From a virus, in IMG/VR virus record IMGVR_UViG_3300006886_000001: a stretch of DNA of 42,132 nt. One strand, written 5' to 3'. The notes under the pieces were generated by a model that saw only the letters and a list, made by a program, of their open reading frames with translations, had not been told where the DNA came from and ran no database searches. How positions within the stretch are numbered: position 1 is the first letter of the stretch; each line of letters begins with the position of its first letter. Positions 3,134-42,132 of this stretch are shown one piece after another. The translations under genes were made by a program, and so were the position numbers.

Positions 3134-3444
3134 TAGTCAACGCTCCTTCTTACATGTAACTGTGCGACAATACTTTTAATCTCTTCCATGCTCTCTCCCA
3201 AATTGGTTAGGCGCAGATCAATTATTTCTTTCGTTACGAAAGCTTTGTAGGCATCATCTCGACTAATGTGCAAATGCTGTATGTCCTTGCACTTCTCTTC
3301 TAGCGTTTTGATAGTAATAGTCTGCGCTTGCAATGTCTCCGTTAAAGACTTGATGCTAAATCGCACCCAAGTGTAAACGACCCCTGCAGTAAAAACAAGA
3401 GATATAATTTGTAAAACAAAGCTTGGTGTGATGGTAATTTCCAC
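3133..3444 (-). CDS. Single-pass membrane protein in the lysis cassette (holin/antiholin-like)
   Basis: N-terminal TM helix (FVLQIISLVFTAGVVYTWV) then a coiled-coil. GTG start. The 3' end carries TTACATGTAA plus AAGGAG ahead of the next start. Confidence 0.45.
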   Translation of the reverse strand: MEITITPSFVLQIISLVFTAGVVYTWVRFSIKSLTETLQAQTITIKTLEEKCKDIQHLHISRDDAYKAFVTKEIIDLRLTNLGESMEEIKSIVAQLHVRRSVD

Positions 3445-9723: not shown

Positions 9724-10078
9724 ATGTGTAAAATCCTTCCGTTATGGTCTTGTACTTAGCAATGTCATCGACGATGGCGCCCGTCTCTTTGAGCGTATGT
9801 ATAAACTTTTTATCATCGATGCAGTACCCAAAATGCGTGACGATGTTTGGGTGGTTGATGTCGTACCTTAGCGCCATCACCGCTCCTCTTTGTGGTTTAC
9901 ATGTAACCCAATTCTTAGACACCTCCAACGCAAATTTCATGAAAATTTTGTAGTTCTCATCAAACCTTATTTTTGGGTCAATAAGGTCAATGTTGTGCTG
10001 TGTCTTATAGATGTCGCGCACGAGTGCATAACAGTCCATTTGCTCAAAAGGGATTCCGATGTAGTCCGCTAGTTTCAT
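9704..10078 (-). CDS. Tail assembly protein K-like (NlpC/P60-type)
   Basis: Preferred start is ATG 10078, which forms an ATGA overlap with the stop of the L-like gene. FEQMDCYALVRDIY holds the candidate catalytic Cys, and a downstream His is present. Lambda K position. Confidence 0.6.
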   Translation of the reverse strand: MKLADYIGIPFEQMDCYALVRDIYKTQHNIDLIDPKIRFDENYKIFMKFALEVSKNWVTCKPQRGAVMALRYDINHPNIVTHFGYCIDDKKFIHTLKETGAIVDDIAKYKTITEGFYTYANHNA

Positions 10079-10695
10079 ACGCGATATCCTTGCCCTAAGC
10101 CCATAAAGCCACCAAAGCGAGAGCTGTTGCTTTTTGCTCTGCAATCGCTTAGCGTTTTGTTACATGTAAGAGCGCTACCCGTATAGCCACAACGCGCATC
10201 TTTGAACTTAAATGAGCAAAAATCTGCATACATCTTGCGTGGTGGGTAATTTTTGTTGTAAAGGGATTCTGTTCCTAGGTTGAAAGTGACTGCATTATTG
10301 GCATTGCTAAAATCTGTGAGTTGGAAATATTCAGTCAAGACTGATTCGCTAAGATCATAGGTGTTTAAAATATGTGCGACACACGTTACGCCATTACCGT
10401 CGATGCCATTTTGCTTTAAATAGGTGTCATACATAATGATGTATTGCGACATGATCCTTAAAGTGTTGTCTAGGCTTATTTGAAAACTAGGCGTCTCACC
10501 CTTGCCTGCAGTAATCTCGCCAATATCAAAAGTAAACGCGGTAAATTCATGCTCTTGGAAGGTGATATTTTCACCATTGTTCACGACATAAACGGTCGGA
10601 GTTGATGGAATGTTTACCTCTAGCGCGCAAAGAAGTACGCTATCGGTTCCTAGCGCGTTAAGGTCGGCGATGGTTGCTAGTTTAAGATTTCGCAT
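10075..10695 (-). CDS. Minor tail protein L-like
   Basis: Lambda L position. The C-terminal Cys cluster (CSFKFKDARCGYTGSALTCNKTLSDC) recalls the Fe-S cluster Cys residues of lambda gpL. Confidence 0.65.
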   Translation of the reverse strand: MRNLKLATIADLNALGTDSVLLCALEVNIPSTPTVYVVNNGENITFQEHEFTAFTFDIGEITAGKGETPSFQISLDNTLRIMSQYIIMYDTYLKQNGIDGNGVTCVAHILNTYDLSESVLTEYFQLTDFSNANNAVTFNLGTESLYNKNYPPRKMYADFCSFKFKDARCGYTGSALTCNKTLSDCRAKSNSSRFGGFMGLGQGYRV

Positions 10696-22583: not shown

Positions 22584-22801
22584 TTTGCAAGCTCCAAGAG
22601 TTTCTTTACGGCATCCGCTATCTCTTTGTTTTTTTTGTTTTCTTTAAGAGTTTCAATAAAATTAATTGCCCATTGTGGAAGTTCATTTGATGATGACCAA
22701 TTTCTAACTGTTCCTTCGGAGGCTCCAAGCTTATCTGCCAACTCTTTTTGAGTGAGCCCAAGCTCTTTACATGTAAGCTTAACGATGTTATCTTCTAGCA
22801 T
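22580..22801 (-). CDS. XRE-type HTH protein, paralog A (73 aa)
   Basis: LTCKELGLTQKELADKLGASEGTVRNWSS is a classic HTH. It is a paralog of the C-terminus of 38553..39113. Confidence 0.75.
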   Translation of the reverse strand: MLEDNIVKLTCKELGLTQKELADKLGASEGTVRNWSSSNELPQWAINFIETLKENKKNKEIADAVKKLLELAK

Positions 22802-29118: not shown

Positions 29119-29226
29119 TTTATTTTTACATGTAAAGAGTAAGGTGAGAATTTATACGTGTTAAAGATAGTGGGAAAAGTTGTGATTTTAGAGAGGTAAT
29201 GGTAGAGAAATTGGTTATTTTTGGGC

Positions 29227-29739: not shown

Positions 29740-29748
29740 AAAATTCTC

Positions 29749-30396
29749 CTATAAAAATCTTGCCCAATGGCGTTCTGAAACAATGGCTATACCAGTCTTT
29801 TTTTGATCGCGTAGCTCTATGGCCTTTTCTATCTTTCTTCCAAAACTAGAGTGCGCCCAGTCTTGGCTTCCTATGTCACCTATGACGAGGAAGTCTGTGT
29901 CTTTTTTGACCCCATCGTGGATAATGCCGCCAAGCTCTACAATAAGCTCTGAGAGCTGTTTTCGTGGTCCTGTTGTAAATATCCCCGTAAAAACAAACGA
30001 TGCGCCTTCTATGGCGATGCTAGGTGCAGGCTTACATAAAGGAAGTGTACTGCTCATGCTATCTATCTCTGCATCATCACAGATTATGTCTCCACCTGTA
30101 AGCTCAGCCATTGTCTCTAAAAGTTCTTTTTGCTCTTCATCATCTAAAATGCCATCTTTGAGCATTTCAGAGATTCGATTATAGAGTATGTTAAAAGGGT
30201 AATGTTCTGCAACATGGGAATTGGCTTCTATCCATTTAAGAAGAAACTGCGCTTCTTGCATATTGGTAGCGTTGTCTGCGATCATACCTCTACAAACACC
30301 TATAAGCTCATCGATCTTACGGTTACATACTTCTTTTGCGCGAATATTTCGTGTTTTGAGTTGCCCTTGGTCATCTGTTAGTTTTGCATCACTCAT
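29749..30396 (-). CDS. BRCT-domain protein with an N-terminal helical domain
   Basis: Residues ~128-215 (IEGASFVFTGIFTTGPRKQLSELIVELGGIIHDGVKKDTDFLVIGDIGS...KIEKAIEL) match the LigA-type BRCT pattern. The N-terminus (GMIADNATNMQEAQFLLKWI...LKDGILDDEEQKELL) is TerB/DjlA-N-like by eye. Confidence 0.7.
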   Translation of the reverse strand: MSDAKLTDDQGQLKTRNIRAKEVCNRKIDELIGVCRGMIADNATNMQEAQFLLKWIEANSHVAEHYPFNILYNRISEMLKDGILDDEEQKELLETMAELTGGDIICDDAEIDSMSSTLPLCKPAPSIAIEGASFVFTGIFTTGPRKQLSELIVELGGIIHDGVKKDTDFLVIGDIGSQDWAHSSFGRKIEKAIELRDQKKTGIAIVSERHWARFL

Positions 30397-30436
30397 CTTT
30401 TTCCCTTTATTAAAAACCTACTAAATTTTAAGCACC

Positions 30437-31501
30437 CTATTCTTTACCTATTTTTCTTTTTTCAGCAGATGCTATAAGCTCTTCTTTATGGTTGTAAAGT
30501 TCATCGACACTATTAATAGCGATCTTAACTTCCGCTCCATTTTCGTCAGGGAGCCCTAACGTTTTCTGTTTGCCATTGAAATATAGCCTACAAATCCATT
30601 TTGTTACTTTTCCTTGATAAAGAATATTGAAGTAACTCATAGTGTCTTTATAGCTGACATTTTTTATCCCAATAGTTTCACCAACAATTGAACGCACAAT
30701 GTAAAAAGCATTAAGTTCATCTTCTGTCGTAATCACTTGTTTTTCGTCGACTACAGGCTCTTCTTCTTGGACTTCTTCAATTTGTTGAGGAACGGATAGT
30801 GTAGACTGAATTGCTTGGATTTTATCGTTTGCCATGTCATTTAGAACATCAGCAAAAGATTTTTTGACATAGCCTCTAAACTCTTCTATCACGGCTGTAG
30901 ACATTCTTCTTTCAGTGATTTTTCTCGCAAAAAAGGTTACAAAGTCATCAGATGGATTATCAACTTCTGCTTTAAAAATAGCTTGAATCTCTCTGTGATA
31001 TTTTTTTGTACTGGCCATTTGCAATATGGTTTCTGTGTCGAGAACATCTTTGGCAAATTTTACTAATTCTTTGATATCTCTATCTCTTACATTTTCAAGG
31101 TTTATCACTAAAAATGGTGTTTTATCCATCTTGTTTTGTTCTTCAAGGTCTGAGAAAAATCGATACTCTAACCCATTGGTTAAAATGGCAAATTTGCAAT
31201 CTGTCACATGAAAATATCGTACGAGCTGGTTATTGTGGTTGTTAAGGTTTTCAGTATGGCTTTTGACCTCTATAATCATAATAGGCTTACCATCACGCAA
31301 TATAGCATAGTCTACTTTTTCACCTTTTTTAGTGCCGATATCGGCAGTAAATTCAGGAACTATCACCGTTGGGTCAAATACATCATAACCAAGAACTGAA
31401 AGAAAAGGCATCACAAAAGATTGCTTGGTTGCTTCTTCGGTCAAAATTTTATCTTTCATCGTTTTGATACGATCACCAAGTGCTTTTATTTTCGCTTCCA
31501 T
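30437..31501 (-). CDS. PD-(D/E)xK nuclease-fold protein, HsdR_N-like (stand-alone)
   Basis: TEEATKQSFVMPFLSVLGYD..VDYAIL (D64)..IIEVK (E78, K80)..NQLVRYF..AILTNGLEYRFF is the type I restriction HsdR N-terminal domain pattern. The C-terminal ~150 aa are an unassigned domain. Confidence 0.7.
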   Translation of the reverse strand: MEAKIKALGDRIKTMKDKILTEEATKQSFVMPFLSVLGYDVFDPTVIVPEFTADIGTKKGEKVDYAILRDGKPIMIIEVKSHTENLNNHNNQLVRYFHVTDCKFAILTNGLEYRFFSDLEEQNKMDKTPFLVINLENVRDRDIKELVKFAKDVLDTETILQMASTKKYHREIQAIFKAEVDNPSDDFVTFFARKITERRMSTAVIEEFRGYVKKSFADVLNDMANDKIQAIQSTLSVPQQIEEVQEEEPVVDEKQVITTEDELNAFYIVRSIVGETIGIKNVSYKDTMSYFNILYQGKVTKWICRLYFNGKQKTLGLPDENGAEVKIAINSVDELYNHKEELIASAEKRKIGKE

Positions 31502-31529: not shown

Positions 31530-32144
31530 TTATTCCTTCAACAACATCAAACTACCAAATTTCAAACGCCCGACTATCTTGCCTACAATATCAAAATCAT
31601 TGATGCCAAGCTCAAAGGAATCGTACTCTTTGTTGTCGCTTTTTATGATCGCTTTTTTGCCGATGATCTGCACGCGCTTGATCTGTACAACGTCATCATA
31701 AGCGATGAGATAGACCGCTTCCGCAGGGATGACATCTCTACCATTGCGTAGCTCTATGATCGCCCAGTCGTTCTCATCCAAGTACGGGGCCATACTATCA
31801 CCCACAATGCGGATCATAGCAATGTCTTTGGTGATGATATTTGAAGGAAAAACACGACTATCAAAGACGAAGTTATCTGAACTAAGGCGCAGTTGCTCAA
31901 GCATACCCGCAGCGCCACATCCTGCGACGGCTTCAAATATTGGAATGGTGATGATATTTTGAGAAGTTGAGACATTTTGTCTTAAATCTTTCCAAATTTT
32001 AGAAGGAACACCTCTCTGCAACCACTTTGCCACTGTTAATTCATTTTGACCAAGTATGCTTGCGACTTCTTTAACACCCTTGGCATTTAGGGCTTTCATC
32101 AAAGATTCAAAACTATCAGGATCAACTTTTTCTAAATTTTTCAT
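31530..32144 (-). CDS. cI: CI-type repressor (HTH + S24 LexA-like autopeptidase)
   Basis: HTH is VKEVASILGQNELTVAKWLQRG. The S24 motif is IVGDSMAPYL, with a downstream Lys region. Preferred start is ATG 32144 after GAGGAAAAAG, because the longer ORF would overlap the operator. Confidence 0.85.
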   Translation of the reverse strand: MKNLEKVDPDSFESLMKALNAKGVKEVASILGQNELTVAKWLQRGVPSKIWKDLRQNVSTSQNIITIPIFEAVAGCGAAGMLEQLRLSSDNFVFDSRVFPSNIITKDIAMIRIVGDSMAPYLDENDWAIIELRNGRDVIPAEAVYLIAYDDVVQIKRVQIIGKKAIIKSDNKEYDSFELGINDFDIVGKIVGRLKFGSLMLLKE

Positions 32145-32159
32145 CTTTTTCCTCAAAAA

Positions 32160-32201
32160 AAGACATAAGGTCTTGACATTAAAGACAAAACGTCTTATAC
32201 T
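32160..32201 (+). promoter_or_regulatory. Rightward early promoter with two operators
   Basis: TTGACA (32173-78), a 17-nt spacer, then TATACT (32196-201). Operators are AAGAC-N5-GTCTT at 32160-74 and 32182-96, both perfect. The 20-mer AAAGACATAAGGTCTTGACA is shared with the leftward promoter. Confidence 0.75.
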
Positions 32202-32219
32202 TTCATTCATAAATCGTTC

Positions 32220-32530: not shown

Positions 32531-32809
32531 GCGTTCAACGAAGCTTTACATGTAAGGCTTCTTCGAGTGTTTCACTCGCATTGTCGGAGGTAAAATCCTC
32601 ATCAAAAAATCGTTTTGATCGTCTTAACGTTGTGAATAAGGCGGCTACGTCCTAGGGGGCATCTTTGGGTGTTACGGTAAAGACCCTATACAAGTTTTTT
32701 AATGAGGGCATGAGCATTTAACAATCCTTTATGTTTTATTTGCAACACACCTCTTTGAACCGCTGCTTTGCTGTGTCCTCTTTAAAAAACTTAATCTCAA
32801 GGAGAAAAC

Positions 32810-33448
32810 ATGAAGGCTATCAAGGATTTATTAAAACATTGTATGGGTAAAAACAACCCAAAACCTGAACTAGACTGTATTTTAATTGATGGAAACAAGC
32901 TTATTTGTACAGACACAAAGCAACTACTCGTTTTAAAGTTTGAGGATGATTTTTGTGCAGCAAAAGATGAGATGATAATGCTTTTTGAAAAGCTACCAAA
33001 AGGCTTCATGGGGGCACATCGCCCTAAACAAATGGTTGACATTTTAGATGCAAATCTTGGAATTGTGGAAGATTTAGGATTTAAACTAGGTATGCCATAT
33101 CATGGCAATGACTGCAAAGCAAAATACCCTGACTATGAACGTATCATTGGCGCATCACCACAAGCAAAGCGTTATAAATTTACTTTTGATGGGTATAGAA
33201 ACAGCGATGACATGCTTATTTTTAAATCTACCATTTTAAATAATGCGCTTTTTGATGGTAGATATTTAGCAAAATTTGCACAACTTCTTTTAAAGACACG
33301 CCCACCTTTTCGTATAACTATCGAACAACAAGATGCGAATATGCCATTGCACATTCATGCAAAAGTACTTGGAAAAAGCGCACTTTATAGCATAACCTAT
33401 CTCGTTATGCCTATTGTGACCGACGAAAAAGACAGGCAAGTAGCATGA
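32810..33448 (+). CDS. Hypothetical protein; faint sliding-clamp-like features
   Basis: AAGGAG RBS. ILIDGNKLICTDTKQLLV, KYPDYERII and the C-terminal LVMPIV vaguely recall DnaN motifs. Weak call. Confidence 0.3.
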   Translation: MKAIKDLLKHCMGKNNPKPELDCILIDGNKLICTDTKQLLVLKFEDDFCAAKDEMIMLFEKLPKGFMGAHRPKQMVDILDANLGIVEDLGFKLGMPYHGNDCKAKYPDYERIIGASPQAKRYKFTFDGYRNSDDMLIFKSTILNNALFDGRYLAKFAQLLLKTRPPFRITIEQQDANMPLHIHAKVLGKSALYSITYLVMPIVTDEKDRQVA

Positions 33449-33618
33449 ACGCCCTACGCCAATACGCAACGCTCGAACTGATGTTGCAAAACAAACCAAA
33501 AACGACCATTAAAGAGGCATTGACGGCTATTGAAACGGTTGGAAAAGTGACCAAAAAATGCGCCACGTTTTTGACCATAAAGTACCAAGTTATTTTACAT
33601 GTAAAGGTCGCCGCATGA
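33445..33618 (+). CDS. Small ORF (57 aa), not in the ORF track
   Basis: ATGA overlap with the upstream stop. It ends ..VILHVKVAA, overlapping the next start. The 3' end carries the start-associated palindrome. Confidence 0.45.
   Translation: MNALRQYATLELMLQNKPKTTIKEALTAIETVGKVTKKCATFLTIKYQVILHVKVAA
33594..33617 (+). promoter_or_regulatory. Start-associated palindromic motif, copy 1
   Basis: TTTACATGTAAAGG-tcgccgc-ATG. Confidence 0.7.
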
Positions 33619-33854
33619 CTAAGATGCTTGACATCGCCACGCAGCTTTTAAACATCGAAAAGCACGATGCAGTTGAGCAGAACGAGCACGGTAAGAAGTA
33701 CGTGCCTGCCTCAGTCGTGCGGTGCTTAGCGCATGAACTGATCGTAGAGATACGCAAGCAAGAAGCAAGCGACAAAGAGGTGCTTGGATACATCGAAAAA
33801 GCAAAACAAATCCTTATAGGATTAGGAAGGGTAGGAGCAGAGGATGACAGCTGA
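33615..33854 (+). CDS. Hypothetical protein (79 aa)
   Basis: Start chosen at ATG 33615, exactly 7 nt after TTTACATGTAAAGG. Confidence 0.55.
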   Translation: MTKMLDIATQLLNIEKHDAVEQNEHGKKYVPASVVRCLAHELIVEIRKQEASDKEVLGYIEKAKQILIGLGRVGAEDDS

Positions 33855-34005
33855 AATGCACAAACGCCCATTTGCAAACCGTAAGCCCCCCGTGAGAATA
33901 GGACAAAAGAAGATCGAGCCAAATGCTTCGTTTTGTAAAAGAGGTGTTGGCTTACCATTGGTGCAGTTAATACAACATGTGCTTAAAGAAAGAGAGAAAA
34001 AGTAA
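33844..34005 (+). CDS. Small basic ORF (53 aa), not in the ORF track
   Basis: Overlaps the upstream stop and ends 1 nt before the next start. Hand translation: MTAEMHKRPFANRKPPVRIGQKK... Confidence 0.35.
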   Translation: MTAEMHKRPFANRKPPVRIGQKKIEPNASFCKRGVGLPLVQLIQHVLKEREKK

Positions 34006-34006
34006 G

Positions 34007-34318
34007 ATGAAAATGATTTCCTTTAAAGAATGGGAAGAACAAGGCGAAAAGTTATTTGGCGAAAATAAAAGAGATTGGAAATTTGTATGCCCAATGTGCA
34101 ATACTGCACAATCTTTTAATGATTTACTGCAAGCAGGTATATCTGAGGATGATGCGCAAGGTTATGTAGCCTACAGTTGCATTGGAAGGTTTAATAATAA
34201 AGAAAAAGGGTGTAATTGGACTCTAGGAGGCTTGTTTAGCATCCATAAATTGGAAGTTGTTAACGAAGAAGGGACTCGACCAATGTTTGAGTTTTTAAAG
34301 AACGAAAATGTTCAATAA
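34007..34318 (+). CDS. Cys-rich conserved phage protein (Zn-binding candidate)
   Basis: [14 protein letters not shown]...[20 protein letters not shown]. The pattern resembles a recurrent small phage family, recalled as VVA0879-like from memory. Confidence 0.45.
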
Positions 34319-34742
34319 AGTCGTAATGCTCGGCAACCTAACACGAGACTGTGAACTTCGCTACCTTCCAAGCGGTGGCGCAGTTTGTACGACTGGATTA
34401 GCCACCAACCGAAGATTTAAAAAGCAAGATGGTAGCCAAGGTGAAGAGGTATGTTTTATCGACATTACTTTCTTCGGGCGCACCGCAGAGATCGCGAACC
34501 AATACCTAAGCCGCGGTAAAAAAGTTTTGGTTGAAGGTCGCCTCAAACTTGACCAGTGGACGGATCAGCAAGGAGTTAAACGCTCGAAGCACTCCATCAC
34601 CGTTGAGACATTAACGATGGTCGATACGCGAAGCCAAGCACCGCAAACACACAACGGTGTGCCATGCGAAGTGACGGGACCAAACGGACAACCATTACCC
34701 GACTATATCCCCAACATCAACGATGACGAAATCCCATTTTAA
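34308..34742 (+). CDS. ssb: Single-stranded DNA-binding protein
   Basis: OB-fold N-terminus ([24 protein letters not shown]...[26 protein letters not shown]) and an acidic tip DDEIPF. Confidence 0.9.
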
Positions 34743-34751
34743 AGAGGCATT

Positions 34752-35576
34752 ATGAAACGACCATTTTTGCGTTACCTTGGCGGAAAATTTCGCATTGCCT
34801 CTTGGGTCGTCCAATTTTTCCCTGAACACCGAAAATATGTTGATGCGTATGGCGGTGGTGGTAGCGTTCTTTTTGAGAAACCTCGCTCGTATGAAGAAGT
34901 TTACAACGACCTAGACAGTGATGTTGTCAACCTCTTCCGCATAGCTCGGGATGATGCTTTAAAGCTCAAAAAGCTTATGGAGTGGACGCTTTGGAGTCGA
35001 GATGAATTTGAATTGGCGTATGAGCTAACCGATGACAAAATCGAACTGGCAAGACGTACTATCGTCAAATCATTTATGAGTTTCGGCACTGGCTCAAAGA
35101 CCAAAGAGCAAGCAGGATTTAACCAAGGCATGCACTCAAACGGCATAGGCGATGCGATAAAGTGGAGAGAGTACCCAAACGTACTTTTGGAAGTGCAAGA
35201 CCGCCTCATAGGCGTTGTGATAGAAAATAGAAAAGCCATGCAACTGATAGAGTGCCACGATGCGGTAGATACCCTCTTCTACTTAGACCCTCCATATCTT
35301 CCTAAAACAAGAGTTATGGGAACACGAGGCTACACGCATGAGATGACACGCCAAGACCACGTAGAATTGCTCGAGAAGATTTTACATGTAAAAGGTATGG
35401 TCATCATAAGCGGATACGAAAGCAAATTGTACGACGAAACCTTAGTCGGGTGGGATAAAAAGATCATCAACGCTCGCGCTGCAGGTTATAGGGGTGCAGT
35501 AAAACGCAAAGAGTGTATTTGGATAAATCCAAACGCACAACAAAAACTTCAAAACAATTTATTTTATTCAGCATAA
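34752..35576 (+). CDS. dam: N6-adenine DNA methyltransferase, Dam/D12 class
   Basis: YLGGKFRIASWV, YVDAYGGGGSV (SAM site) and FYLDPPY (DPPY catalytic motif). Confidence 0.85.
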   Translation: MKRPFLRYLGGKFRIASWVVQFFPEHRKYVDAYGGGGSVLFEKPRSYEEVYNDLDSDVVNLFRIARDDALKLKKLMEWTLWSRDEFELAYELTDDKIELARRTIVKSFMSFGTGSKTKEQAGFNQGMHSNGIGDAIKWREYPNVLLEVQDRLIGVVIENRKAMQLIECHDAVDTLFYLDPPYLPKTRVMGTRGYTHEMTRQDHVELLEKILHVKGMVIISGYESKLYDETLVGWDKKIINARAAGYRGAVKRKECIWINPNAQQKLQNNLFYSA

Positions 35577-35584
35577 GGAACACC

Positions 35585-35926
35585 ATGAAAGTTTACATAG
35601 CAAGCCCCGTTCGTCCAGTTTTGGAAAAGTGCAGAGCTGAAGGATTTGAGTTGTACGCTGCTTGGGGGCTTGTTTCCCTCATGGCATCCAATGGGTGTCG
35701 AACCATGAAAGAACTAGGTCACACCCCACTCTCCCCCATCTTAGCATTTGATGGCGTTTACTCCGAATACGAAGAGCGAGAGCGCATCGACCAAGCGTGT
35801 GAAGAACTGCTGCTAAGTTGCGATGCCATCTATGTCGTACCGACAGACTACAACAAAGACAGCAAAGGCATAGCGCGAGAGCTAGAGATCGCCAAGGCGC
35901 ATAACATCCCCATCATAGGAGCATAA
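35585..35926 (+). CDS. DUF4406 / nucleoside 2-deoxyribosyltransferase-like protein
   Basis: MKVYIASPVRP... N-terminus and 114-aa size fit the Rossmann-like NDT-fold families common next to phage MTases. Called by eye. Confidence 0.4.
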   Translation: MKVYIASPVRPVLEKCRAEGFELYAAWGLVSLMASNGCRTMKELGHTPLSPILAFDGVYSEYEERERIDQACEELLLSCDAIYVVPTDYNKDSKGIARELEIAKAHNIPIIGA

Positions 35927-35927
35927 A

Positions 35928-36038
35928 ATGGAACTCGTATACGCGATCACGTGCGTTGTGTTTATCATCGGCGCAATGCTTAAAAAACGTCCTGAGAAAA
36001 AAGGGAATATCGACCCCATCCGTGGGTGGTTGAGATGA
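35928..36038 (+). CDS. Small TM ORF (36 aa), not in the ORF track
   Basis: MELVYAITCVVFIIGAMLKKRPEKKG.... It starts 1 nt after the upstream stop and has an ATGA overlap with the next gene. Confidence 0.35.
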   Translation: MELVYAITCVVFIIGAMLKKRPEKKGNIDPIRGWLR

Positions 36039-36814
36039 AGTACATAGCATCATGGAGCGGAGGTAAAGACAGCACCGCTATGGTTGATTTGCTTCTTAGA
36101 GATAAAAAGCCTTTAGATTACATTGTTTTTTTAGATACCACAATCGAATTTAAACAAATGTATGACTACATTGAAAAATTAAAAGCTTATTGGGAACAAA
36201 GATATGATGCAAAAATAGTCATTCTTCATCCAAGTAAAAATAAAAATGATTTTAAAAAACATGTTGTCTTTTCAACTATCAGCAGAGGAAAACATGAGGG
36301 TAAGATAAGAGGTTTTTTAAATGCAGCAGACCCATTTTGCATGTGGAGGAGAGATGCCAAAATGGCACCTTTTGAAAAATGGGTTAAAAACATTGGTGAG
36401 TATAAAACTTACATAGGTTTTACAAAAGATGAAACACACAGATGTAAAACTGATAAAAATGAAATTTATCCTCTCGTCACAGACTATAAAATGAGTGAAA
36501 TAGATTGTCAAAAGTATCTAGTAGATCACGAAATGGAAAACTCCCTTTATAGGCATTTTACACGAACTGGGTGCAGACTTTGCCCTTACCAAAGTGAAAG
36601 AGATTGGTACAAAATATACCAATATTTCCCTGATGTATGGCAAGAGCTCAAAGATATGGAACAGAGATTAAATACTTTTGACAATGTTCTTTATCCAAAA
36701 CCATTTCAGAAATATCAAGGCACAAGCGAATATGAAAAAATGTTCAAAGGCAGGCAAGAGTGGGATTTTAACGATCAACCACTAAAAGACTGCCTTTGCC
36801 ATATTTTGGGGTAG
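36035..36814 (+). CDS. PP-loop ATPase, PAPS reductase / DndC-like family
   Basis: SWSGGKDS PP-loop. The C-terminal Cys pair TGCRLCPYQ is present. Confidence 0.75.
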   Translation: MKYIASWSGGKDSTAMVDLLLRDKKPLDYIVFLDTTIEFKQMYDYIEKLKAYWEQRYDAKIVILHPSKNKNDFKKHVVFSTISRGKHEGKIRGFLNAADPFCMWRRDAKMAPFEKWVKNIGEYKTYIGFTKDETHRCKTDKNEIYPLVTDYKMSEIDCQKYLVDHEMENSLYRHFTRTGCRLCPYQSERDWYKIYQYFPDVWQELKDMEQRLNTFDNVLYPKPFQKYQGTSEYEKMFKGRQEWDFNDQPLKDCLCHILG

Positions 36815-36817
36815 CGC

Positions 36818-36982
36818 ATGACCGTACCCCAAGAGCTTAGAAACATAAAAGAAAAGCTCGTTTTAGCAAATACAGAAGCCGAATACCTCGTATCCCTACT
36901 CAAAGACCCAACGCCTGAGAACATCGAAAAAGCACGTATGAAAATGGAAGAATTAAAAGAAGAATTGGAGGAGTGTTTATGA
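36818..36982 (+). CDS. Small helical ORF (54 aa), not in the ORF track
   Basis: Starts 3 nt after the upstream stop, with an ATGA overlap with the MTase-like gene. Confidence 0.35.
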   Translation: MTVPQELRNIKEKLVLANTEAEYLVSLLKDPTPENIEKARMKMEELKEELEECL

Positions 36983-37593
36983 AAATCCTTAACCTATACG
37001 CAGGCATTGGCGGTAATCGCAAATTATGGGGGGATGAATACGAGATCACAGCAGTTGAGTATAACGAAGACATTGCCGCGGTGTATCAAGATCTTTATCC
37101 TAACGATACGGTTATAGTAGGCGATGCCCTCGATTATCTATTAAAGCATTATCAGGAGTTTGATCTTATATGGGGCAGCCCAAAATGCCCAACACATTCA
37201 AGGATGAGACAGTATCTGCAAGTTCAATGTAGAGGTCAAAAAGCTTGCTACCCTGATATGTCGCTATACCAAGTGATAATCTTCCTACAGTACAACTTTA
37301 AAGGTAAGTGGGTTATCGAAAATGTTAAACCATATTATGAACCATTAATTAAACCTTCTTTTGAATTGCAAAGACATATTTATTGGTCAAATTTTGAAGT
37401 TCAAGAAGTAGAGTTTAAAAAATCAAAACTACGATCAGCCCAAATACCTGATCTTGAAGAATACTTAGGTTTTGATCTAAGCAAATACAAATTACCAAAC
37501 AAAAGACAGGTGCTAAGAAATTGCGTTCTGCCTGAGATTGGTGAGCATATATTAAAAAGCGTTATGGGAAAAGGAAAACCATGGAGCTTTTAA
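36979..37593 (+). CDS. Miniature C5-cytosine methyltransferase-like protein (204 aa)
   Basis: Motif I is LNLYAGIGG. Motif IV is altered to GSPKCPTHS, against the canonical GPPCQ. Motif VI is VIENVK. QRHIYWSNF and RNCVLPEIGEHI form the motif VIII/X-like tail. The target-recognition region is very short. Confidence 0.6.
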   Translation: MKILNLYAGIGGNRKLWGDEYEITAVEYNEDIAAVYQDLYPNDTVIVGDALDYLLKHYQEFDLIWGSPKCPTHSRMRQYLQVQCRGQKACYPDMSLYQVIIFLQYNFKGKWVIENVKPYYEPLIKPSFELQRHIYWSNFEVQEVEFKKSKLRSAQIPDLEEYLGFDLSKYKLPNKRQVLRNCVLPEIGEHILKSVMGKGKPWSF

Positions 37594-37775
37594 TACCACT
37601 CATCATCTGCTTCTTCGTATTGCTCAGCATCTGCTACCTAATCAACCAAAAAATAGAAAGATTGTACGAAAAGATCGAAAAGGTAGAAGCAGAGATCGAA
37701 GAGAGCCTAGCAGACAAGATTCTCCCCAACGGGAAGCCGACAAAACCAATAAATACAAAGGGCATGGCATGCTAA
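37581..37775 (+). CDS. Small membrane protein
   Basis: N-terminal TM helix (LLIPLIICFFVLLSICYLI) then a charged helix. Confidence 0.5.
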   Translation: MELLIPLIICFFVLLSICYLINQKIERLYEKIEKVEAEIEESLADKILPNGKPTKPINTKGMAC

Positions 37776-37996
37776 GAGAAGTTTTATTTTTAACCCAAGG
37801 TGATCCATTTTGCCAACATCAAAAAAATGGCGAGGCACCCATCTACGAATACCAGTACGTTTGTATTTTCCACCACATCATCGTTGGAGAGCCTTCTTTT
37901 CATCGAACGGACGAAGAAGCAAAAGCACTTTATACCGAACACGGGAAATGGCATAAGATCGTTGAAACAAAAAGAGAACGAAAGGCTGACAGATGA
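37769..37996 (+). CDS. Hypothetical protein (75 aa)
   Basis: Overlapping starts and stops with both neighbours, in the co-directional gene chain. Confidence 0.45.
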   Translation: MLREVLFLTQGDPFCQHQKNGEAPIYEYQYVCIFHHIIVGEPSFHRTDEEAKALYTEHGKWHKIVETKRERKADR

Positions 37997-38385
37997 GTAA
38001 AGCGCTTGAAGATTATGAATTAAAATATGATTCATTTTGGAAAGAGATCATCGAAAAAGATGGCGTGGTAAATATAGACCAAGTCAAAAGAGAGCTGTAT
38101 GATTTTGCAATGATGATTAAAGAGGTGGGCGAAGTATATTGCCATGTGACAAATGGTGCTATTTCTAAGCCAAATACATGCTCAGATGTGGTTATTGATA
38201 TTCATGATGATATTAGAACTAGAGAAATAGAAGAAGCAATAGCCGAAGAGCTTGAAGCGCATCAAAAACCTCAAACCTCCTGCCACGGTTGCAAATACGA
38301 TGACAGTGATGTCGATGAAGCAGAGCGAAAAGCGCACTGCCTACCGTGCCTTGAACCGGTCACGCTTAGGCGAAATTATACCTAA
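37993..38385 (+). CDS. Hypothetical acidic protein with C-terminal Cys pairs
   Basis: SCHGCKY...HCLPC. 130 aa. Confidence 0.5.
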   Translation: MSKALEDYELKYDSFWKEIIEKDGVVNIDQVKRELYDFAMMIKEVGEVYCHVTNGAISKPNTCSDVVIDIHDDIRTREIEEAIAEELEAHQKPQTSCHGCKYDDSDVDEAERKAHCLPCLEPVTLRRNYT

Positions 38386-38552
38386 AGTAGTACATAAAGG
38401 TAATTTTTTTGCCTCTTTTGGTTCAGATATTGCCTATATATGCTACTTTTGTTATATGAATGTTGACATAGTTAAAGTATAATAATTTTAAAAATAATAG
38501 TTTTATGATAAAAAACTTCTTAGTAAGTACTATGAAATGAGGGTAAATAAGC

Positions 38553-39113
38553 ATGGATAACAAAAATGTCAGTTTGACGACAATCAACCTCTTCGGAAAG
38601 CGCGAAGTTGAGTGCATCTTGCACACTAGACTTCTAGCCGAACAAGAGATCAAGGCGTCGTGTGAGGTGGAATTGCTTAAGGTCTACAAAGACATCGATG
38701 CGGCGATCAAAGACGTGGCAATCTTAGAGGTCATGAGCGAAGACAACGGCGACATTGTGCTATGCGTGCATACGAAAAAAATGGAAAGAATCCGCTACTA
38801 CGGAACCAACGGGCACCTATTTCGCTTCAAATACGGCATCTCGCCTGAGATCATCAAAAGCGCTGCAGGACTTGGCGAGCAAAACATTGTCAAGCTTACA
38901 TGTAAAGAGTTGGGGATCACCCAAAAAGAGTTATCGGATAAGCTTGGCATAGACGATGGAACGGTAAGAAAATGGTCATCAGACCCAACAAAAACACCTG
39001 TGTGGGCGCAAAATTTCATGAGTTTAATTTTAGAGCATGACAAAAACATCAAAGCAATTTCCGCATTTAAATTCTTCATCGAAAATATAGGTGTTGGAAA
39101 AACCAACAGCTAA
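38553..39113 (+). CDS. HTH protein, paralog B (unique N-terminal domain + XRE-type HTH)
   Basis: LTCKELGITQKELSDKLGIDDGTVRKWSS. The HTH core is about 60 percent identical by eye to 22580..22801. Confidence 0.7.
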   Translation: MDNKNVSLTTINLFGKREVECILHTRLLAEQEIKASCEVELLKVYKDIDAAIKDVAILEVMSEDNGDIVLCVHTKKMERIRYYGTNGHLFRFKYGISPEIIKSAAGLGEQNIVKLTCKELGITQKELSDKLGIDDGTVRKWSSDPTKTPVWAQNFMSLILEHDKNIKAISAFKFFIENIGVGKTNS

Positions 39114-39170
39114 AAAGTTCCTGCCAAGAACACATAAAGCATAAAATATTCATTTTAAGAACTTTATCTA

Positions 39171-39199
39171 TTGACTTTGGTTCTCTAAATATATATAAT
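39171..39199 (+). promoter_or_regulatory. Near-consensus sigma70 promoter for Bro-N paralog B
   Basis: TTGACT (39171-76), a 17-nt spacer, then TATAAT (39194-99). It lies 41 nt upstream of the start at 39240. Confidence 0.6.
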
Positions 39200-39239
39200 T
39201 CCTCTAAATTGTTCCAAAAAAGAACATTAGGAGGGTATT

Positions 39240-39812
39240 ATGTTTCAAGTAACATTTAAGGATATAAAGCTACACGTTGTCGGGCATTCCGATCATATTT
39301 TTTTACTTTCATCTAAAGACGTGGCTCTTGGCTATGGTGTTTCAGAACACACCATCCGCTCACATCGAAAAGACCAATCAGACGAGCTCATTGAAGGTAA
39401 GCACTTCATCATCGACCGTTCTTACAAAAACACACCAAAAACCTACTGGACAAAGCGAGGCATTGTGCGCCTTGGCTTCTTCATCAAATCGCAACAAGCC
39501 AAAGCGTTCCGTGACTGGGCTGAGGACTATGTTGTCGAAGAAAAAAAAGCCGACACCCACCAACTAGAGCGCGAAAATGTAGAACTAAAACGAGCACTAA
39601 ACCGCCTATTAAAACAACAAACCCCAACATGCGAAGAGCTGTTAAAGCTCCATTACCCAGTGCTCCACAACAACATCTTGGAGCTAGACAACACCTTCAA
39701 AAACATAGATATTGCAGCACTTCAACGCTTCGTTTTTTTCATTCAACAGATCCAAAAACACACAAGCACACTCGCCCAAGGGCTTAAACAAGATCGCAAA
39801 AAAAGATCATAA
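39240..39812 (+). CDS. Bro-N domain protein (antirepressor-like), paralog B
   Basis: SSKDVALGYG...WTKRGIVRLGFFIKSQQAKAFRDWAEDYV, preceded by a GGAGG RBS. Confidence 0.7.
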   Translation: MFQVTFKDIKLHVVGHSDHIFLLSSKDVALGYGVSEHTIRSHRKDQSDELIEGKHFIIDRSYKNTPKTYWTKRGIVRLGFFIKSQQAKAFRDWAEDYVVEEKKADTHQLERENVELKRALNRLLKQQTPTCEELLKLHYPVLHNNILELDNTFKNIDIAALQRFVFFIQQIQKHTSTLAQGLKQDRKKRS

Positions 39813-39814
39813 AA

Positions 39815-39830
39815 GTTTCCCATGGGAAAC
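39815..39830. promoter_or_regulatory. 16-bp perfect palindrome GTTTCCCATGGGAAAC
   Basis: Starts 3 nt after the Bro-B stop and abuts the next TTTACATGTAAAGG copy. Confidence 0.4.
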
Positions 39831-39854
39831 TTTACATGTAAAGGAAACCTCATG
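39831..39854 (+). promoter_or_regulatory. Start-associated palindromic motif, copy 2
   Basis: TTTACATGTAAAGG-aaacctc-ATG. Confidence 0.7.
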
Positions 39855-40457
39855 TGTGAAGATTTAAAAAAATTCATTGAAGAACACAAAGACATGTTTG
39901 ATAAGCATGTTGTTAAAAAGATAGATTTGCCGACAGGCGGAGAGCATGACTGTTATATCAGTTTTCGCGACCCTGCTACATGTAACGGCGCAATGGAGTT
40001 TATCTATATTGGCGGCTGCTTGACCATACAAGGCGATTACGGAAATGCCTCATTTACTTGGTATAACCCACGCAATAGCATTAAAGTAATGGCAGAGTTT
40101 GCTGAGAATTTTGGATACTTTTTGAGCAAAACATCTTCTGCTGAGCGTAATTCAATCCCTAACAGATATTTTACAGATTGGGATGAAGATTTATGTGTTG
40201 ATACCATTAAAAAAGAGTTAAAAGACTTTGAGGAACATGGTTATACATTTGAAAATTCAGATGATGATTGGGAAGATTGCACCGAAAGTTTTTTTGAATG
40301 GATTGCATTTTTGCAAATAAATGGCTCAAAGTATTTTGGTGATGACTGGTATGAGTTTGCACCGCAAGCAGGGTATAAAATCGAAAACCGTGCTTATTGC
40401 TTGGTATATGGATTTATTGAAGCGGTCAAAGCTTTACATGTAAAGGATAGCGTATGA
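39852..40457 (+). CDS. Hypothetical protein (201 aa)
   Basis: Start chosen at ATG 39852, 7 nt after TTTACATGTAAAGG. The annotated upstream extension would read through the palindromes. Confidence 0.55.
   Translation: MCEDLKKFIEEHKDMFDKHVVKKIDLPTGGEHDCYISFRDPATCNGAMEFIYIGGCLTIQGDYGNASFTWYNPRNSIKVMAEFAENFGYFLSKTSSAERNSIPNRYFTDWDEDLCVDTIKKELKDFEEHGYTFENSDDDWEDCTESFFEWIAFLQINGSKYFGDDWYEFAPQAGYKIENRAYCLVYGFIEAVKALHVKDSV
40433..40456 (+). promoter_or_regulatory. Start-associated palindromic motif, copy 3
   Basis: TTTACATGTAAAGG-atagcgt-ATG. Confidence 0.7.
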
Positions 40458-40813
40458 AAACATTACCAAGTAAAGAGCTATTGAGCGAAGTATTAAAAAT
40501 AAATGTAACAGAAGTTTATGAAAGAAGAGGTGAGATTAGATTTAGAACCCATACAAATAGAGCAGATGGGTGGGATAGTTCAAGCGATACACCTATCCCA
40601 AACATCTACGAACTAGCATATAAGTGCAAAGAGGATGCTACTAAATACAATTATTTCATATCTTCATTTATATCAAATTGTATGCAAGGCAAAGGTGAAG
40701 CTACGATACAAGATGAAAATGGCAATAAGAAAGTATTTGTAGCAGACACAGAACCAGAAGCAATCTTCAAAGCGCGTGAATGGTTAAGAAAGTATTTGAA
40801 GGATAACCAATGA
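40454..40813 (+). CDS. Hypothetical protein (119 aa)
   Basis: ATGA overlap with the upstream gene. Start-associated motif present. Confidence 0.55.
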   Translation: MKTLPSKELLSEVLKINVTEVYERRGEIRFRTHTNRADGWDSSSDTPIPNIYELAYKCKEDATKYNYFISSFISNCMQGKGEATIQDENGNKKVFVADTEPEAIFKAREWLRKYLKDNQ

Positions 40814-41271
40814 GTATGGAACTATGGCAAAAAGAGGACTATCCAAAAATAAAAATGGGTGTCGTGAGAGATGCGTGCGAAGATGAGCAGAAGAAAAGAA
40901 TTAGGGCACGTATTGAGTATTTTGGCATAGAAGAAGGTAAAAGAACTATCTTATCTTATTTTGATCGCGCTCAATTTTGCGCTGTAAAAGTAAAACAAAC
41001 TCAATATAAAAACCTTAACTCCTACCTACATAAAGAAGCCGAACGAGGCGCATTGATAAAATGTAGCAGTGGGCGTGGGTCTTATCTCTCTTTTGTATTC
41101 CCCAAAAAAGAGCTTGAGCGCATGATCGATGAAGTTATTGATGAATTGACAGCTTATTATACAAGCACTTCTCATGGTAAAGGGGAAATTCCTACAGTTA
41201 CTATTCACAAAACTCATTCACTTGGACCTTCAGAAACTTTACATGTAAAGGAAAAGTCATGCCTGAAATAG
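40810..41271 (+). CDS. Hypothetical protein (153 aa)
   Basis: ATGA overlap with the upstream gene. The 3' end encodes TLHVKE through the motif. Confidence 0.55.
   Translation: MSMELWQKEDYPKIKMGVVRDACEDEQKKRIRARIEYFGIEEGKRTILSYFDRAQFCAVKVKQTQYKNLNSYLHKEAERGALIKCSSGRGSYLSFVFPKKELERMIDEVIDELTAYYTSTSHGKGEIPTVTIHKTHSLGPSETLHVKEKSCLK
41238..41261 (+). promoter_or_regulatory. Start-associated palindromic motif, copy 4
   Basis: TTTACATGTAAAGG-aaaagtc-ATG. Confidence 0.7.
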
Positions 41272-41528
41272 AATTTAGCCCGCTTGAGCTGCTTAGGCTT
41301 GAGCATATCCGCTATGGTGAAGCACGTTTTAGAGATACCAAGTTCGTTTTTCCTTTTGTGAATCGCATTTACCAAGACATAGCAGAGCTAACAAGCCAAT
41401 GTGTTGGGTGCATTGAGTATGACTACCAAAGCCACCTTCTAAGCGATGAAGAGTACCGAAAAAGATTCCAAAAATGCAATGCTTGCATGAAAGGTAAAAA
41501 AGACTTATTTCAGGAGAAAAAGCGATGA
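41259..41528 (+). CDS. Hypothetical Cys-containing protein (89 aa)
   Basis: Start-associated motif present. Contains CVGC...CNAC. Confidence 0.5.
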   Translation: MPEIEFSPLELLRLEHIRYGEARFRDTKFVFPFVNRIYQDIAELTSQCVGCIEYDYQSHLLSDEEYRKRFQKCNACMKGKKDLFQEKKR

Positions 41529-41845
41529 ATTTTGCAGAAAAATTGGAGAGACTTAGAAGTGCAGTAAGTTTTGGTATTTCACCACATCGAAACATAACCG
41601 TTATGTTGGACGACTTGAAAGCATTGATTTATCATTTTGATAGATTAGATAATGAAATACGGGACAAGCACAAAGAGGAAGCGAAAACGTGCGAGTGGAC
41701 ATACTATGACCACCCATTTTATGAACCTGATTGGAGGGGATCATGTGGTGTTGCATGGGTTATCATCGACGGTACCCCCGAAGAAAACCACATGAACTTT
41801 TGCCCACAATGCGGTGGGAAAATTTTACATGTAAAGGATAAGTGA
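41525..41845 (+). CDS. Hypothetical protein with a C-terminal zinc ribbon
   Basis: CEW...FCPQCGG. The 3' end encodes ILHVKDK through the motif. Confidence 0.5.
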   Translation: MNFAEKLERLRSAVSFGISPHRNITVMLDDLKALIYHFDRLDNEIRDKHKEEAKTCEWTYYDHPFYEPDWRGSCGVAWVIIDGTPEENHMNFCPQCGGKILHVKDK

Positions 41846-41847
41846 TG
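41824..41847 (+). promoter_or_regulatory. Start-associated palindromic motif, copy 5
   Basis: TTTACATGTAAAGG-ataagtg-ATG (xis start). Confidence 0.7.
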
Positions 41848-42045
41848 GAACAATCAAGAATACAACATTTAAGACCAAAACAAGTAGCAGAAGAATATCA
41901 TATAGGTCTTAGCACCGTTTGGAGATACGCCAAACTAGGATATTTTACCCCCATAAAGATCACTGGAGGGGTAACGGTTTTTTTAAGAAACGAGCTTGAT
42001 AACTTCTTTACCGGCAATGCTCAAAGTCAAAACGTAGTTACATAG
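41845..42045 (+). CDS. xis: Excisionase / AlpA-family HTH protein
   Basis: LRPKQVAEEYHIGLSTVWRYAKLGYFTPIKI..V.F...ELDNF matches the Xis/AlpA MerR-like HTH pattern. It is the last gene before attP and int on the circular map. Confidence 0.7.
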   Translation: MEQSRIQHLRPKQVAEEYHIGLSTVWRYAKLGYFTPIKITGGVTVFLRNELDNFFTGNAQSQNVVT

Positions 42046-42132
42046 GAAGTTACATAAAACTTCCTATACCTCTTCAATAACCCCACAAAATGGCTATTTT
42101 ATACCACATGTTGGTAGAGTCTCCAGCCACCA
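42034..42132. repeat. Terminal direct repeat, right copy (identical to 1-99)
   Basis: Same 99 bases as the window start. The last 12 nt of the xis-like ORF, including its stop, lie inside this repeat. Confidence 0.95.

Follow-up and report, generated by a model that had tools for sequence, protein, structure and literature searches.

The DNA uptake sequences (DUS) of the Neisseriaceae and the uptake signal sequences (USS) of the Pasteurellaceae are exact words of 9-12 bp that recur about once per kb, stand in genes with a frame bias, are enriched between genes, form lineage-specific dialects and occur in resident phages as well. The highly iterated palindrome HIP1 of cyanobacteria, GCGATCGC, is a perfect palindrome that is 15-300-fold over-represented within and between genes and conserved between related genomes beyond its flanks; its extended forms vary by lineage, it contains shorter palindromes typical of methyltransferase targets, and its function is still unknown (PMC5861425, PMC4390886). 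Here we describe a 10-base palindrome, TTACATGTAA, that recurs through the 42,132-nucleotide virus record IMGVR_UViG_3300006886_000001 (the whole stretch is referred to below as the window), which by its gene content and close matches is predicted to be a temperate phage of Sulfurospirillum (Campylobacterota). We consider it probable that this word, extended in the host to CTTTACATGTAAAG, is a highly iterated palindrome of Sulfurospirillum, and that the phage carries its copies at the positions where they cost least and where they may act as microhomology for the exchange of gene cassettes.

The window holds 13 exact copies of TTACATGTAA, or 0.31 per kb. In 100 dinucleotide-preserving shuffles the mean was 0.05 copies and the maximum one, and 0.06-0.23 copies would be expected from Markov models (orders 0-4) fitted to the window (both-strand counts halved). 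The word is the most over-represented 10-mer of the window, by roughly 100-fold; its 8-mer core TACATGTA occurs 19 times and the 12-mer TTTACATGTAAA seven times. An earlier note on this DNA had listed the same 13 copies, with every coordinate exact, together with sites matching at nine of ten positions near 2082, 20000 and 39977; these are present (the last at 39976), as is a fourth at 228. The note had also called for a comparison with shuffled and Markov backgrounds, and the enrichment stands against every composition model (13 observed, 0.05-0.23 expected) but not against the genome of the host (0.3-0.6 per kb, compared with 0.31 in the phage). None of the known uptake words tested (two USS and four DUS variants) occurs in the window; a Haemophilus-type Chi pattern is present seven times (1 + 6 on the two strands).

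The host context of the word emerged from a scan of metagenome contigs with the pattern CTTTACATGTAAAGGA-N4-8-ATG, which returned at least 120 loci spanning 676 kb. Beyond the one seed copy per locus, these loci hold 174 exact copies, or 0.26 per kb, and the extended consensus in the host is the 14-bp palindrome CTTTACATGTAAAG. Many of the loci come from contigs of 0.2-0.9 Mb with chromosomal genes (hrcA-grpE-dnaK, leuC, glmS, mutS), and exact-sequence look-ups showed their proteins to cluster with those of S. multivorans, S. diekertiae, S. halorespirans, S. oryzae, S. barnesii, S. deleyianum, S. cavolei and S. tamanense. A single locus of S. multivorans (CP042966) spans 21.3 kb and contains 11 copies, and one of S. 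deleyianum (CP001816) contains 14 over 22.9 kb; among these are copies in a gene with a UDG domain (PF03167) and in a gene of the HhH-GPD/NUDIX_4 glycosylase family; a third Sulfurospirillum locus, at dnaK, has two copies in 21.9 kb. Host density is accordingly 0.26-0.6 per kb, as opposed to an expectation of ~0.002-0.005, and the phage value lies at or below it. A control locus from the Arcobacteraceae has no copies.

The word is also sharply defined and conserved between orthologous host loci. Exact copies outnumber all thirty one-off variants combined by 254 to 71 (3.6:1), which is unlike ordinary transcription-factor sites. Where orthologous host loci of 78-85% identity could be aligned, 10 of 12 sites were exact while their flanks had diverged; about 0.1-0.2 per site would be expected by chance. 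In 315 kb of host loci, 96 sites are coding and 73 intergenic, so that 43% of the sites fall in the 11% of sequence that is intergenic. This corresponds to a density about 6-fold higher, reaching 4.3 per kb in convergent intergenic regions compared with 2.4 in tandem and 1.4 in divergent ones. The S. multivorans and S. deleyianum loci contribute 15 coding and 10 intergenic sites. Coding sites are read in the frames LHV, TCK and YM* in the ratio 67:21:8, and 14 of the 96 lie within 30 nt of a stop. With respect to translation starts, about 9% of host sites adjoin a Shine-Dalgarno sequence (SD) and an ATG, and ATG is modestly enriched 8-10 nt past copies.

Two roles in the host, a promoter link and a terminator link, were considered and rejected. 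The spacing between adjacent copies in the host peaks at 29-36 bp, and a -10 box lies between the members of some pairs, but -10-like boxes near the motif form only weak peaks, which speaks against a promoter link. As to terminators, palindromy extends no more than 3 bp past the 10-mer in 241 of 254 sites, and few sites reach into long stems. In other genomes the core appears with other outer bases: TACATGTA occurs seven times in 21 kb of Sulfurospirillum sp. 1307 (L287) and five times in 21 kb of Sulfurimonas sediminis (L286), and a more distant phage relative of the window, contig L125, has five TACATGTA sites, mostly as TACATGTAG. In these small samples, TACATGTA with variable flanks looks like a set of putative dialects.

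In terms of described systems, the host pattern fits, by analogy, both HIP1-type words and uptake signals. As in HIP1, the palindrome is over-represented by one to two orders of magnitude in Sulfurospirillum loci (~20 kb each), with the window value of about 100-fold in the same range, sites are kept beyond their flanks, copies lie inside open reading frames (ORFs) as well as outside them, lineages show apparent dialects, and shorter palindromes (CATG/ACATGT) are nested inside. It differs in belonging to the Campylobacterota, in its A-T-rich sequence of 10-14 bp rather than 8, in its six-fold intergenic bias, and in having one end that doubles as a Shine-Dalgarno sequence. As for uptake signals, the exact word recurs about once per 1-3 kb with lineage dialects, in small samples, and the order to which Sulfurospirillum belongs includes naturally competent bacteria. 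The known DUS and USS are, to our knowledge, not palindromes, whereas the present word is; we know of no uptake receptor for it in Sulfurospirillum, and the literature that we searched does not document competence or uptake bias for this genus.

As to what the word does in the host, a DNA-uptake or self-recognition signal is a tentative candidate, and of the same tentative standing is a binding site of some abundant protein, either a dimeric DNA-binding one or a nucleoid one. A methylation- or repair-linked word of the HIP1 type appears rather doubtful, and so does any function outside these three. The second of these possibilities leads to a rival account of the phage copies, namely that an abundant global regulator or nucleoid protein of the host binds the word and that the phage has recruited extra copies into its early operon, tying early expression or prophage silencing to that protein. 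A 14-bp palindrome would suit a homodimer, intergenic DNA of the host has a 6-fold higher density of sites, these sites cluster at 29-36 bp with some pairs bracketing a -10 box, and the phage copies are biased toward the early operon and SD positions. Against this, genes contain 57% of the host sites, density is greatest in convergent (3'-3') intergenic DNA rather than in divergent DNA, the association with -10 boxes is weak, and transcription-factor sites are normally degenerate while exact copies here far exceed variants. On balance we regard this account as unlikely.

Turning to the phage, six of its 13 copies lie at gene junctions just upstream of a start (Table 1). The five on the plus strand (33595, 39832, 40434, 41239 and 41825) all read TTTACATGTAAAGG-N7-ATG. 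Copy 39832 is non-coding, and the ORFs upstream of the other four end in ILHVKVAA*, ALHVKDSV*, TLHVKEKSCLK* and ILHVKDK*, that is, in xLHVK followed by 2-6 residues. The sixth, at 3150 on the minus strand, has an N9 spacing, and the gene downstream of it sits immediately before the endolysin. All of this agrees with the earlier note, which had described the 14-mer and the N7 spacing common to five copies, the LHVK near upstream C-termini and a sixth junction copy on the minus strand, and which had taken AAGG as the Shine-Dalgarno sequence of a start-associated subset. AAGG(A) is indeed the local, Campylobacterota-type Shine-Dalgarno sequence, and the AAAG end of the palindrome overlaps it, completing AAAGG(A) with a following G.

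The note had further called the 7-nt spacing invariant and had pointed to one frame, LHVK, in the upstream genes; both have a simple reading. Stop and start overlap as ATGA at 33595 and 40434 and as TGATG at 41825 (read from the sequence). In the frame TTA CAT GTA AAG Gnn nnn nnA TGA, a 7-nt spacer places the upstream stop on the downstream ATG, and both the invariant spacing and the single LHVK frame can therefore be ascribed to ordinary SD-to-ATG spacing combined with an ATGA/TGATG overlap, the geometry of translational coupling. The residues past LHVK are short and unrelated, as expected of dispensable tails. The same architecture is found in the host: in S. multivorans, TTACATGTAAAGG-N7-ATG forms the junction of an aconitase-family pair annotated leuC/leuD (Pfam Aconitase and Aconitase_C, with cluster members described as 3-isopropylmalate dehydratase or homoaconitate hydratase), and the TAA of the palindrome is the upstream stop. 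It also recurs in an otherwise unrelated phage of 32% G+C (L016, IMG/VR 3300017977_000077, positions 5501-5707), where a 68-aa cro-position protein ends in SLHVKEEK* and TTACATGTAAAGG-N7-ATGA leads into a gene of Bro/ANT type.

The fixed position of the junction copies beside the SD also raises the question of a role at the RNA level, with UUUACAUGUAAAGG as a translational operator or enhancer, or as a coupling hairpin, in the manner of RegA or of the start-associated sequences (SAS) of Cluster K mycobacteriophages. Such a role would be in keeping with two observations: six of the phage's 13 copies abut an SD at fixed spacing, with ATGA/TGATG overlaps, and ATG is modestly enriched past host copies. 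The junction copies, however, have no stable or consistent RNA fold (z-scores of -0.3 to +1.1), on which ground we rejected a hairpin; nor do they include a promoter-like site. The other seven phage copies and ~91% of host copies lie away from starts, copies stand upstream of a promoter and in both orientations within genes, and palindromy has no special meaning in single-stranded RNA. An RNA-level role is thus very improbable. The Cluster K SAS themselves are conserved words upstream of starts that include the ribosome-binding site, and they are asymmetric, phage-specific and essentially always start-linked. The six start-proximal copies of the window resemble them, but the present word is a palindrome, is off starts in 7 of 13 cases and is abundant in the host rather than specific to the phage.

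Four relatives assembled from fetched loci allow the phage copies to be followed between genomes. Relative B (IMG/VR 3300000496_000017) is a prophage in a 361-kb contig; relative C (IMG/VR 3300028601_000088) has the same early, immunity and replication modules and a different structural module; relative D is a prophage in a 219-kb contig of a Sulfurospirillaceae metagenome-assembled genome (MAG), where host genes begin right after xis; and L125 is the more distant relative mentioned above. The association with the host is also reflected in the methylase and single-stranded DNA-binding protein (SSB) of the phage, which have counterparts at least 90% identical lying side by side in the same 219-kb contig, and in the tetranucleotide GGCC, which is ~5-fold depleted in the phage (14 sites, where ~70-80 would be expected) and to the same degree in the loci sampled from S. 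multivorans and S. deleyianum (L281 and L282). The latter depletion suggests, at the level of sequence, a HaeIII-type restriction system in the host lineage.

Across these relatives the palindrome copies show both conservation and turnover. All five genomes (the window, B, C, D and L125) have an exact 10-mer at 33595, with differing flanks, and the window shares with B, C and D an exact copy at the junction after the Bro-N-like gene (post-Bro copy). The copy at 32546, in a hairpin past the cro-position gene, is exact in C, departs at one position in B (TTATATGTAA) and at two in D (TTAAATGTAG), where compensatory changes preserve the stem, and the xis junction of prophage D has no palindrome at the position of copy 41825. 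The presence of the word inside both helix-turn-helix (HTH) paralogs as LTCKELG, which had been pointed out earlier, is confirmed.

A perfect palindrome with copies in the early operon invites comparison with an operator, and the earlier note had proposed one for a dimeric phage regulator, with the stoperators of Cluster A phages as a partial analogue beside the Cluster K SAS. Neither the operator nor the analogy is supported, as the word is spread through the Sulfurospirillum genome with only ~9% of its copies adjacent to starts and as the repressor has operators of another kind. The best promoter-like sites of the immunity region are PR (TTGACA-17-TATACT, 32173-32201) and a leftward PL' (TTGACA-18-TATGAT, 29105-29076), and both are overlapped by an inverted repeat AAGAC-N5-GTCTT, present in two copies, which is predicted to be the immunity operator. 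The cI-cro intergenic region contains no copy of the palindrome. Judged from these predicted sites, the phage repressor does not use the palindrome as its operator, and that candidate was rejected. Cluster A stoperators comprise many dispersed copies of a short site, often at gene junctions, that is the repressor's own asymmetric operator and is oriented with transcription. The present word is likewise dispersed and often at junctions, but it is symmetric and host-wide, it is distinct from the repressor's operators, and only its SD flank gives it an orientation.

Another phage regulator (the cro-position protein, an HTH paralog or Xis) might still use the word as an operator or a stoperator-like roadblock controlling the early operon and PL'. 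The perfect 10-14-bp palindrome, the concentration of copies in the early operon, the copy within both HTH paralog genes and the copy ~61 bp upstream of the predicted PL' start, kept in C and D, could all be read in this way. The HTH-internal copy, however, is degenerate in C and the PL' copy is absent from B; host chromosomes have the word in abundance, both within housekeeping genes and in intergenic regions of every kind; both promoters have cI operators of a different sequence; and no phage protein tracks the motif across the relatives examined. In particular, locus L022 carries the HTH + Bro pair with no copy in 12.6 kb, which also led us to reject co-occurrence of the motif with that pair. 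A phage-regulator operator is accordingly quite improbable. Near these promoters, a strong terminator with a 14-bp stem (29266-29233, minus) separates PL' from the cI operon, and PL' appears, from its position and orientation, to drive the replication and late genes. In a separate viral contig of 48% G+C that is unrelated to the window (L054, IMG/VR 3300032046_000308), four CTTTACATGTAAAGAC stand in a non-coding stretch of 620 bp (positions 889-1512), accompanied by repeated CTTTACAC half-sites, and this cluster looks like a true clustered operator or origin that would use the same word. The scan of viral contigs with the 14-mer gave mostly chance hits among the matches listed.

A link to recombination is seen in the accessory genes of the early operon. 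A block of three genes present in the window is missing from prophage D, in which a single hybrid junction has the left flank of copy 39832 (the end of the Bro-like gene and its hairpin) and the right flank of copy 41239. The switch point falls inside the 22-bp GAAACTTTACATGTAAAGGAAA common to both, which indicates that the three ORFan genes (39852-41271) are an indel bounded by motif copies; in this comparison, one pair of phage copies coincides with the boundary of a cassette indel. In phage B, two copies of a ~45-nt unit, AGATCATAAAAGTTTCnCATGnGAAACTTTACATGTAAAGGA, enclose a 126-aa gene and are read in different frames, and one of the two hairpin units of B carries a compensatory stem change from C..G to A..T. 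In relative C, the post-Bro copy is followed by yet another gene. The role of module-exchange linker, one of those listed in the earlier note, thus finds direct support in the comparison of genomes, from the D indel at the 22-bp repeats and the duplicated unit of B, although the cases are few.

Homology-driven exchange would explain these cassette indels without a dedicated recombinase. The alternative is a dedicated site-specific or single-strand cassette-capture system, either integron-attC-like or a Y1/RayT-type transposase cutting at TTAC. In its favour one may cite the indel bounded by motif copies, the unit duplicated around an extra gene in B, the cassettes of one or two ORFan genes between copies, and a host locus (L272) in which a gene for a RayT-like Y1 transposase (PF01797, 347 aa, 8213-9420) is flanked by palindrome copies, with a 37-nt repeat in tandem upstream of it. 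The phage, however, encodes no such recombinase, most host copies lie in conserved genes, where capture makes no sense, and identical 22-bp repeats suffice for homology-driven deletion and insertion. The RayT-like family, 55-60% identical across Sulfurospirillum, Sulfurimonas and Arcobacteraceae, behaves as a domesticated single-copy gene and is kept in genera sampled without the 10-mer, so that we rejected it as the driver of the word. A dedicated capture system is, in our assessment, very improbable.

Two further families of repeats bear on this point. The PeSL mobile regulatory cassettes of T4-type phages and the boundary linkers of lambdoid phages are short repeated units at the borders of accessory genes, where recombination shuffles genes. 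Here too, repeated units bound accessory-gene indels in two cases (the window compared with D, and phage B). The junction copies differ from PeSL in having no promoter and in having a stem-loop at the post-Bro unit only, and from both families in that the core of the repeat is borrowed from an iterated word of the host genome. Repetitive extragenic palindromic (REP) elements are described as imperfect hairpins of 20-40 nt that are strictly extragenic (PMC2817692). The present word resembles the REP/RAYT system in being a palindromic repeat with hundreds of copies, and in the RayT-like gene flanked by copies in one host locus, but 57% of its copies are in genes and most have no stem past 14-16 bp.

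Taken together, these observations are most readily accommodated by a host-wide iterated palindrome. A DNA-level process in the host cell would keep the word exact and abundant across chromosomes, and a temperate Sulfurospirillum phage would come to carry it at a host-like density. We infer that phage copies persist where they are cheapest, namely overlapping a Shine-Dalgarno sequence, in the last dispensable codons of upstream ORFs, or in non-coding DNA. The identical junction units of 14-22 bp may then act as microhomology for the gain and loss of accessory gene cassettes.

Several points weigh against this interpretation. The early operon (9.9 kb, 24% of the genome) holds 8 of the 13 copies (binomial p ~0.004), and in B and C all copies are in the early/regulatory part, with none in ~29 kb of late and replication genes. 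If the phage were merely drifting in a uniform way toward the composition of its host, such concentration would not be predicted; either a role in the expression of early genes or differing histories of the modules would fit it. The SD-adjacent share is 46% in the phage (6/13) compared with ~9% in the host, and the shortness of phage genes accounts for only part of this gap. It is because simple drift leaves these two features unexplained that some room remains for a host factor acting on the phage copies. The 33595 and post-Bro copies are exact in every relative examined and could have a phage-level function. In addition, the densities in named hosts come from single loci of ~20 kb, the coding and intergenic statistics of the host rely on crude ORF calls and on loci chosen for one seed copy, and the recombination role draws on one clean indel and one duplicated unit.

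Table 1. Positions of the palindrome copies, cassette boundaries, operators and principal genes in the window
Feature	Position	Strand	Context
Junction copy	3150..3159	-	TTACATGTAAGAAGGAG-N9-ATG; from 103-aa ORF 3444-3133 (AQLHVRRSVD*) to holin-position gene 3133-2684
Junction copy	33595..33604	+	57-aa ORF (ILHVKVAA*), AAAGG-N7-ATGA, 79-aa gene
Junction copy	39832-41	+	in left 22-bp repeat, before gene 39852-40457
Junction copy	40434..40443	+	ORF ending ALHVKDSV*, AAAGG-N7-ATGA, gene 40454-40813
Junction copy	41239-48	+	in right 22-bp repeat, before gene 41259-41528
Junction copy	41825..41834	+	ORF ending ILHVKDK*, AAAGG-N7-ATG of xis-like HTH_17 gene 41845-42045
Intragenic copy	9897..9906		tail gene 9704-10144 (minus), read VTCK
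Intragenic copy	10160..10169		tail gene 10075-10695 (minus), read LTCN
Intragenic copy	22767..22776		73-aa HTH paralog 22801-22580 (minus), read LTCK
Intragenic copy	35382..35391	+	D12-class adenine methyltransferase gene, ILHVKG; kept in prophage D
Intragenic copy	38896..38905	+	186-aa HTH paralog, LTCK; exact in B, CTACATGTAAC in C
Non-coding copy	29126..29135		20 bp upstream of PL' -35, adjoins repressor operator; exact in C and D, absent in B
Non-coding copy	32546..32555	+	tip of hairpin GAAGCUUUACAUGUAAGGCUUC, 16 nt past stop of cro-position gene
Hairpin AAAGTTTCCCATGGGAAACTTT	39812..39833	+	directly past stop of Bro-N-like gene, abuts 39832 copy
Left 22-bp repeat GAAACTTTACATGTAAAGGAAA	39826..39847	+	before gene 39852-40457
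Right 22-bp repeat GAAACTTTACATGTAAAGGAAA	41233..41254	+	before gene 41259-41528
Three-gene block	39848..41232	+	genes 39852-40457, 40454-40813 and 40810-41271, all ORFans
Predicted repressor operators AAGACATAAGGTCTT + AAGACAAAACGTCTT	32159..32196		overlap -35 and spacer of PR
Predicted repressor operators, same type	~29120-29085		at PL', overlapping -35 and spacer
Integrase	292-1542
Lysis, tail, head, terminase, replication genes	~28975 down to 1759	-
S24-type repressor (cI)	31530-32210
Rightward early operon	from 32288	+	to Xis-like HTH_17 gene 41845-42045
D12-class adenine methyltransferase gene			holds copy 35382-35391 (ILHVKG)
Short C5-methylase-like protein	36973-37593		phage-encoded

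With respect to the phage genome as a whole, the window is an entire contig of a JGI metagenome with a 99-bp terminal repeat at its ends, and the genome is therefore taken to be circular and about 42.0 kb long. The closest isolated phage is Sulfurimonas phage SNW-1, with which the window shares 64% identity in the major capsid protein. SNW-1 has no copy of the palindrome, and the motif is thus not carried along with the structural genes. No match came from searches of 50,697 phage records for near-identical DNA, a terminase search of genome contigs returned only distant Pseudomonas prophages among the matches listed, and no tRNA or Rfam family was found in the window. By Pfam and PHROG searches, the genes flanking the junctions are nearly all ORFans.

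The window has two copies of a module that pairs a small HTH protein with a Bro-N-like protein. One (38553-39812, plus) belongs to the early operon, and the other (22801-21803, minus) is inserted between the terminase and portal genes; this late-region copy is missing from relative B. After the cro-position gene, a non-coding stretch of ~270 nt (32531-32800) is ~95% identical in the window and in loci L021 and L142, while the flanking proteins are less conserved (75-95%). It contains several hairpins (z -2.2) with no Rfam match, and compensatory changes preserve the stem of the first in D. Candidate identities for this stretch are a nut/put-like antitermination element, a cluster of terminators and a small RNA. 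Downstream of cI (29344-31501, minus) are genes for a protein with an HSDR_N domain, a protein with a BRCT domain and a lipoprotein-like ORF, which are probably co-transcribed with cI in the lysogen and are candidate lysogenic-conversion or defence genes.

The attachment site attP lies between xis and int (42046-42132 / 1-291). Prophage D ends directly after xis, and its identity to the window stops past GGTAGAGTCTCCAGCCACCACC (~window 80-102). Six GTTACAT repeats flank the attP region (at 4, 16, 214 as a variant, 227, and in reverse complement at 243 and 264), and these are likely arm-type sites for Int and Xis. The TTACAT common to these repeats and to the palindrome is probably a coincidence.

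Overall, an iterated genomic palindrome in the Campylobacterota that is common to host and phages and has the habit of overlapping Shine-Dalgarno sequences is, apparently, new. Our full-text searches, whose scope did not extend to subscription-only papers, found no description of the word, and literature searches on Sulfurospirillum palindromes, methylomes and Campylobacterota uptake sequences yielded nothing relevant. On the host side, Sulfurospirillum has a hyper-abundant palindrome that apparently had not been described, and neighbouring lineages have what look like related dialects. HIP1 has been without a demonstrated function for decades, and an example from another phylum that is shared with phages offers a comparative handle. 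On the phage side, the motif is not a new phage regulatory code, and that tempting reading is removed; instead, the window shows how an iterated word of the host is fitted into a phage at Shine-Dalgarno sequences and stop/start overlaps, and how such copies can act as crossover points for accessory gene cassettes. In practical terms, the word and the avoidance of GGCC are markers by which metagenomic phages can be assigned to Sulfurospirillum hosts.

A more speculative reading, possible but somewhat doubtful at present, is that CTTTACATGTAAAG functions in Sulfurospirillum as a word of self-recognition, whether by signalling DNA uptake or as a site that structures the nucleoid or chromosome, and that temperate phages retain it, especially in their accessory early operon, for uptake, recombination or the binding of host factors. 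If this were true, it would be the first such system in the Campylobacterota and an independent counterpart of HIP1 and DUS, and the cultivable S. multivorans would provide a second, independent test system for the role of highly iterated palindromes.

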